Continued: a report generated by a model with database tools. It deals with a DNA stretch of 64,000 bases from Patescibacteria group bacterium. Lineage in GTDB: Bacteria; Patescibacteriota; Patescibacteriia; JACRDY01. The stretch is not shown here. Location of the stretch: the NCBI GenBank assembly GCA_041653535.1, contig JBAZFH010000002.1, positions 173,011-237,010 on the forward strand, read 5' to 3'.

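Follow-up and report, generated by a model that had tools for sequence, protein, structure and literature searches.

Gene content of the array

The array of 37 ORFs between positions 18970 and 60350 is, judged from its genes, probably the locus with which a Patescibacteria (CPR) bacterium makes a glycan or glycoconjugate of its cell envelope. The observations concern the domain content, the tight packing, the conservation of gene blocks in other genomes, and the genomic link between the radical SAM families and genes for sugar-nucleotide enzymes and glycosyltransferases. The genes discussed below are named by their start coordinates and are as follows.

18970, plus strand: nucleotidyltransferase
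19762, plus strand: salvage enzyme Apt
21137, plus strand: salvage enzyme MTAP
21897, plus strand: DUF6580 membrane protein
22462, plus strand: polyprenol-P GT2
24428, plus strand: class-B-like radical SAM protein
25896, plus strand: Wzx flippase
28275, plus strand: SDR1, CDP-tyvelose 2-epimerase family
29328, plus strand: SDR2, GalE-like
30442, plus strand: double GT4
32769, plus strand: radical SAM protein with auxiliary-cluster domain
34453, plus strand: class B radical SAM protein
35901, 54459 and 57578, plus strand: GT-C candidates
40250, plus strand: PseB/FnlA-type dehydratase
41250, plus strand: RmlD-type reductase
42139, plus strand: cupin
45130, plus strand: class B radical SAM protein
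49243, plus strand: radical SAM protein with auxiliary-cluster domain
59523, plus strand: polytopic membrane protein
60498, plus strand: fn3 protein

An Rfam search revealed no credible RNA in the whole window or in its gene-poor stretch (9600–11300), and a tRNA scan found none. Two salvage enzymes exceeded NCBIfam equivalog cut-offs, namely MTAP (TIGR01694, 308.5 versus 274.85) and Apt (TIGR01090, 211.9 versus 185.85). For the membrane protein 21897, considered as a possible B12-type ECF S-component, a search of PDB sequences gave nothing at E ≤ 1.

Class B radical SAM enzymes

The first-pass annotation had described 24428, 34453 and 45130 as B12-binding class B radical SAM proteins. By domain and motif, this description fitted two of them: the B12-binding domain PF02310 (cut-off 32.1) was matched by 34453 (77.5 bits) and 45130 (56.3 bits), and the CX3CX2C motif is found in both (C195/199/202 and C225/229/232, respectively). 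In contrast, 24428 scored 20.3 bits and is class-B-like solely through its full-length alignment with HpnJ/BchE; instead of CX3CX2C, it has a CX4CX2C motif (C216/221/224), which is kept in its orthologs. The radical SAM proteins of the array fell outside the peptide-maturase and RNA families, with every curated NCBIfam cut-off being missed, and the nearest relatives of 45130 (HpnJ and AprD4) and of 32769 (BtrN, then BlsE) are enzymes with sugar substrates. The best-scoring curated family for 45130 (nearly full length) and 24428 was HpnJ (TIGR03471), the cut-off of which (577.6) was not reached by 45130 (262.3 bits), 24428 (169.1 bits) or 34453 (119.8 bits). The corresponding values for the AprD4 family (NF033070, cut-off 500) were 122.5, 38.7 and 68.9 bits.

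Among solved structures, AprD4 comes nearest to 45130, both in sequence (E = 7e-29, 22% identity) and in fold (TM 0.74/0.80, model pLDDT 94.6). The AprD4 dehydratase is paired with the AprD3 reductase, and 45130 together with its conserved SDRs resembles this pair. However, 45130 differs from AprD4 in having an above-threshold B12-binding domain, and in being set within envelope glycan assembly genes rather than an antibiotic cluster. AprD4 has a related domain yet binds no cobalamin (PMC12931638), so that, on sequence alone, 45130 is only a candidate for cobalamin binding and use. For 34453 and 24428, the best solved relative was MgmA, which acts on protein.

The polyprenol-P GT2, the CE4 deacetylase and the class B enzymes of the array also match the logic of HpnI, HpnK and HpnJ in hopanoid side-chain biosynthesis, in which a GT2 step that puts an amino sugar on a lipid is followed by deacetylation of this sugar and by ring remodeling through a class B radical SAM enzyme. 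For HpnJ, the reaction is a proposed one, directed at the sugar (glucosamine) ring and not at the hopanoid (PMC9204698). Unlike the HpnJ branch, the array has class B enzymes scoring below half of the HpnJ cut-off, lacks hopanoid genes, and places these enzymes beside NDP-sugar enzymes. A domain architecture is also common to the class B enzymes of the array and the C-methyltransferases Fom3, MoeK5 and GenK, which act on phospho- or glyco-substrates; this likeness comes from architecture and literature. The substrate of Fom3 is cytidylyl-2-hydroxyethylphosphonate. Genes for a PEP mutase or for phosphonates are absent from the window. In one relative, P0024, NTP_transferase is naturally fused to a 45130-type enzyme of 57% identity, and the fusion gene follows those for a TPP decarboxylase and an Fe-ADH (locus L002), an order that we take to resemble Fom2, FomC, the Fom1 cytidylyltransferase domain and Fom3. 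In a similarity network, Fom3, MoeK5 and HpnJ co-localize at a stringent threshold (PMC9204698). By analogy, methyl transfer by the class B enzymes of the array may be possible.

Radical SAM enzymes with an auxiliary-cluster domain

PF13186 (cut-off 21.5) was matched by 32769 (63.3 bits) and 49243 (50.4 bits), the two proteins initially described as radical SAM-SPASM. A full SPASM domain, with seven or eight C-terminal Cys, a CX2CX5CX3C motif and two auxiliary clusters, is nevertheless absent from 32769 and from the 49243 family. Only four C-terminal Cys are invariant in the 49243 family (C310, C328, C365 and C368), and the C-terminal Cys of 32769 (C262, C280/281, C325, C328 and C332) do not form the CX2CX5CX3C motif. 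This Cys pattern, as read from the sequences, matches the single-cluster Twitch type.

The best PDB match of 32769 was BtrN (E = 4e-18, at just 68.7 bits, a score for which a curated threshold does not exist), followed by BlsE; BtrN is thus its closest solved relative, and all four auxiliary-cluster Cys align and are conserved, which makes 32769 a candidate Twitch dehydrogenase of the BtrN type. For 49243, the best PDB sequence match was GDGT-MAS (E = 9e-11), which acts on lipid, and the best solved relative by fold was SkfB, which acts on peptide. The fold search was uninformative for this protein, as it returned a mixture of peptide-, sugar- and nucleotide-acting Twitch/SPASM neighbors (TM about 0.5–0.6).

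Sugar-nucleotide supply

The SDR protein 28275 aligned end to end (residues 3–333 of 345) with TaTyvE of Thermodesulfatator atlanticus (PDB 9RL0; 351 bits, E = 5e-104) and also matched 1orr (E = 3.5e-88). On this sequence evidence, it is assigned to the CDP-tyvelose 2-epimerase family, which includes Salmonella TyvE and TaTyvE. TaTyvE interconverts CDP-glucose and CDP-mannose (PMC13098431, PMC7851689); neither article mentions its genomic context or physiological role. The array differs from the tyvelose pathway in lacking 3,6-dideoxyhexose genes (E1/E3, paratose synthase), and in that the epimerase family is here a conserved neighbor of a class B radical SAM enzyme. NCBIfam gave no resolution of the nucleotide specificity of 18970 or of the fused and neighboring nucleotidyltransferases.

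A second set of genes encodes a dehydratase (40250; PF02719, 327 bits), an RmlD-type reductase (41250; 227.9 bits versus a cut-off of 224.05) and a cupin (42139; PF14667, 105.9 bits) that corresponds to the CapF/WbcJ C-terminal domain. Dehydratase, reductase and cupin are common to the array and to the FnlA/CapE, CapF/FnlB and FnlC and the WbvB/WbvR/WbvD pathways. However, the reductase and cupin of the array are separate genes, and no 2-epimerase of the FnlC/WbvD type for a UDP-6-deoxy-L-HexNAc was found. Because 40250 scored below both the PseB and the FnlA equivalog cut-offs, 6-deoxy-L-HexNAc is only a candidate for the sugar made.

Conservation of the 45130 family and of the gene blocks

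We counted the genes associated with 45130 in 35 GTDB species loci that carry an ortholog of at least 42% identity with at least 5 kb on both sides; the species representatives scanned exclude the source genome, and the best match was 63% identical. A homolog of an SDR sugar-nucleotide enzyme lay within 5 kb of the 45130 ortholog in 28 of these 35 loci, a GT4 gene in 17 and another class B radical SAM gene in 15, and at least one glycan gene was present in 32. A cassette of NTP-transferase, 45130-type enzyme, double GT4, SDR2, SDR1 and polyprenol-P GT2 recurs in five loci (L017, L018, L021, L050 and L080), in which identity is 60–65% for SDR2 and 56–61% for SDR1, and loci of Chloroflexota repeat a GT2/SDR2/45130-type cassette. 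The 45130 family has more than 3000 homologs, and the sugar-nucleotide cassette is kept in at least 12 phyla, most of them uncultivated.

The array is put together from several blocks, each of which is kept elsewhere. Blocks found in other Patescibacteria and in Omnitrophota consist of Wzx, GT2 and 24428; of double GT4, 32769, a methyltransferase and 34453; and of 45130, GT4, two methyltransferases, 49243, GT4 and GT-C. The gene for the double GT4 always comes ahead of that for 32769.

Assembly machinery

A complete lipid-linked glycan set, including three GT-C proteins, had been proposed for the array in the first-pass annotation. Wzx (25896; PF01943, 60 bits, 12 TM segments), the polyprenol-P GT2 and GT-C enzymes are indeed encoded, whereas a Pfam search of the scanned ORFs of the 64-kb window found no domain of a priming phosphoglycosyltransferase, of Wzy or of a chain-length regulator (Wzz); the polytopic proteins 57578 and 59523 have no family assignment. 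The assembly route is therefore incomplete as read. Two of the GT-C candidates, 35901 (42.1 bits) and 54459 (90.6 bits), passed the PF11847 cut-off of 26, and the third is tentative. The GT2 protein 22462, with two C-terminal TM segments, aligned over its full length with PgfS and ArnC and scored below the equivalog cut-offs. The fn3 protein 60498 is a possible glycan acceptor.

An end-to-end PgfS/ArnC-like GT2 and large GT-C membrane transferases are likewise present in the ArnC/ArnT system of lipid A modification, the GtrA/B/V system of O-antigen glucosylation and the Streptococcus mutans Pgf system, and ArnA and ArnD of the Arn pathway are counterparts of the SDR sugar-nucleotide enzyme and the CE4 deacetylase of the array. 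However, the GT2 of the array falls short of the equivalog cut-offs of such systems, no small flippase of the GtrA/ArnEF type was found in the array, and its two or three GT-C proteins are AftD-like rather than members of the ArnT family. To our knowledge, none of these three-component systems includes radical SAM enzymes.

The array also resembles Wzx-dependent heteropolysaccharide clusters and general O-glycosylation clusters with methyltransferases, such as the O-glycan cluster of Tannerella forsythia (PMC6120980), in combining Wzx, many Leloir glycosyltransferases, sugar-nucleotide tailoring and SAM methyltransferases in one co-directional cluster. In contrast to clusters of this type, the window has no priming transferase, polymerase or chain-length regulator, the array has AftD-type GT-C proteins instead of an OTase or ligase, and five radical SAM enzymes are present.

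Transcription and number of products

The array is probably read through as a single long transcription unit. An alternative with a substantial chance of being correct, albeit a smaller one than even, is that the 41 kb consists of several independent envelope-glycosylation modules, lined up one after another along the leading strand in a compact CPR genome, with several products and acceptors; such modules might account for a Wzx-dependent oligosaccharide, for at least one single-sugar decoration of the Gtr/Arn type and for a 6-deoxy-L-HexNAc branch. The same-strand run (10353–63749) passes beyond the glycan genes through unrelated housekeeping genes, gaps of 67–90 nt are present within the array, and promoter-like sites are frequent in it, all of which would suit independent modules. 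The promoters or terminators of CPR bacteria may depart from the consensus used in the scan. On the other hand, 23 of the 36 junctions overlap or span at most 10 nt, and the scan for terminator-like sites found none in any intergenic gap, as had been noted at first reading.

In the MAG GCA_042570845.1, the 45130 block and the block with Wzx, double GT4 and 32769 are on different contigs; loci L005 and L091 belong to one MAG; and in other genomes blocks are found on separate contigs or alone. The six-gene cassette of NTP-transferase, 45130, double GT4, two SDRs and GT2 stands alone in L017, L018, L050 and L080, with Thermodesulfobacteriota-type MAGs among its carriers, and the gene order in L089 differs. 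Conversely, orthologous blocks are physically linked in several Patescibacteria (L010, L012, L013 and L089). Because blocks are separable or on separate contigs elsewhere, the array may have more than one product, and the three membrane GT2s and two or three GT-C proteins suggest several lipid-linked donors. Modularity of this kind would change how many products are made and leave the type of chemistry as it is.

Alternative targets of the radical SAM chemistry

We further considered a lipid target: rather than sugars, the radical SAM enzymes would modify the lipid moiety of a glycolipid, the polyprenyl carrier or membrane lipids, with the hopanoid enzymes HpnP and HpnR, the ladderane enzyme and the tetraether synthase as models. 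NCBIfam matches to HpnR, to TIGR04072 (lipid-biosynthesis B12/radical SAM; 98–101 bits for 34453 and 45130) and to the GDGT ether synthase are consistent with it, as are GDGT-MAS as the top PDB sequence match of 49243 and the polyprenol-P GT2 as a conserved neighbor of the 45130 family. However, all of these family matches fall far short of the cut-offs, the window contains no lipid-synthesis genes, and soluble sugar-nucleotide enzymes are the neighbors with the strongest and most consistent association, one relative being fused to a nucleotidyltransferase; HpnJ itself, moreover, is proposed to act on a sugar ring (PMC9204698). A lipid target is accordingly unlikely.

It is less likely still that the product of all or part of the array is a secreted secondary metabolite of carbohydrate type (aminoglycoside-, moenomycin- or nucleoside-like) instead of an envelope glycan. 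The closest characterized or solved relatives of its radical SAM proteins do belong to antibiotic pathways, namely AprD4 (apramycin), BtrN (butirosin) and BlsE (blasticidin S), and both the network neighborhood of HpnJ, Fom3 and MoeK5 (PMC9204698) and the Fom2/FomC/cytidylyltransferase-Fom3-like arrangement in L002 would fit such a product. Against this, Wzx, polyprenol-P GT2 and GT-C are hallmarks of envelope assembly, the families adjoin GT4 and GT-C genes across at least 12 phyla, and no cyclitol synthase, aminotransferase, or typical resistance or export gene was found.

That the radical SAM proteins are peptide or protein maturases (RiPP-type or for a surface protein) or anti-phage defense proteins, present in a glycan locus by chance, is highly improbable: weak matches to ApyD (118–164 bits), RiPP C-methyltransferases and sactipeptide maturases, MgmA (34453 and 24428) and SkfB (49243) as best solved relatives, and partial PADLOC pVip matches point that way, but all matches are far below the cut-offs, those to pVip cover the radical SAM core only, the association with SDR, glycosyltransferase and NTP-transferase genes is kept across phyla, and neither a RiPP recognition element nor a protease or a transporter was detected. 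A maturase role was rejected on these sub-cut-off matches and conserved glycan-gene neighbors, and also because intergenic gaps of at most 90 nt leave little room for a separate precursor-peptide gene. As for defense, no PADLOC model was matched over its full length (pVip, 47–64 bits over about 115 of 260 positions; PDC-M51A, 40–55 bits), and Pfam matches to GT4-conflict families were much weaker than those to generic GT4.

Proposed route to the envelope glycan

Under the envelope glycan interpretation, the gene products could act in four steps. In the cytoplasm, 18970, the 2-epimerase-family protein 28275 and the GalE-like 29328 would supply one activated sugar; the dehydratase, reductase and cupin (40250–42525) would provide a 6-deoxy-L-HexNAc; and the CE4 deacetylase with its flanking methyltransferases may yield an N- or O-methylated amino sugar. 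Unactivated positions of nucleotide-activated, lipid-bound or oligosaccharide-bound sugars would then be modified by the class-B-type enzymes 24428, 34453 and 45130 and by the BtrN-like Twitch enzymes 32769 and 49243, a nucleotide-linked substrate being most likely for 45130. Possible class B reactions are C-methylation, AprD4-like deoxygenation or HpnJ-like rearrangement, and 32769 might catalyze a BtrN-like alcohol oxidation. In the third step, five GT4 domains and the GT2s would build the glycan on a carrier of the polyprenyl type, the priming transferase being supplied by another locus, and Wzx would flip the product. Finally, 22462, of the ArnC/GtrB/PgfS type, would make lipid-linked single sugars, which two or three GT-C enzymes would pass, outside the membrane, to a final extracytoplasmic acceptor, the candidates being a wall polymer and a surface protein.

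A broader and more tentative proposal, which we hold to be somewhat less probable than its negation, is that the 45130 family represents a widespread, unrecognized route to a radically modified nucleotide-hexose. Its members would work with conserved partners, namely a TyvE-type NDP-hexose 2-epimerase, a GalE-like SDR, an ArnC-like polyprenol-P GT2 and a sugar-1-P nucleotidyltransferase, and the product could carry a C-methyl branch, could be deoxygenated with no E1/E3 system involved, or could have its ring contracted to give a carbasugar. After loading on polyprenyl phosphate, this product would reach the envelope through GT-C enzymes. More class B and Twitch radical SAM enzymes would have been added to this core in CPR and in at least one locus of DPANN archaea (L079), giving surface glycans a chemistry that is not known so far outside antibiotic and hopanoid pathways.

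Implications for surface glycans of CPR and other lineages

The known cases of sugar chemistry by radical SAM enzymes come from aminoglycosides, nucleoside antibiotics, moenomycin, fosfomycin and hopanoids, and two recent reviews of the cobalamin-dependent radical SAM enzymes do not mention glycans or polysaccharides. The initial impression that the locus matches no described pathway agrees with our literature search, which found no paper linking radical SAM enzymes to glycan loci of CPR/Patescibacteria. The nearest case is an unannotated 'radical SAM metalloprotein' in the Campylobacter jejuni HS:19 capsule cluster (PMC8743553). What sets the present case apart is that several uncharacterized radical SAM families are embedded among envelope-glycan assembly genes.

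If the proposed interpretation is correct, the nucleotidyltransferase, the epimerase, the second SDR and 45130 would offer enzymologists a soluble, testable entry point, and the locus could provide a physiological context for CDP-glucose 2-epimerases of the TaTyvE type, work on which has been confined to in vitro studies. Genomes of minimal metabolism would, by implication, have to provide for cobalamin and for a heavy turnover of SAM. The surfaces of CPR, DPANN, Elusimicrobiota, Omnitrophota and other lineages would carry sugars that are not foreseen by standard glycan analysis and annotation, which would bear on host recognition and phage evasion by ultra-small episymbionts.

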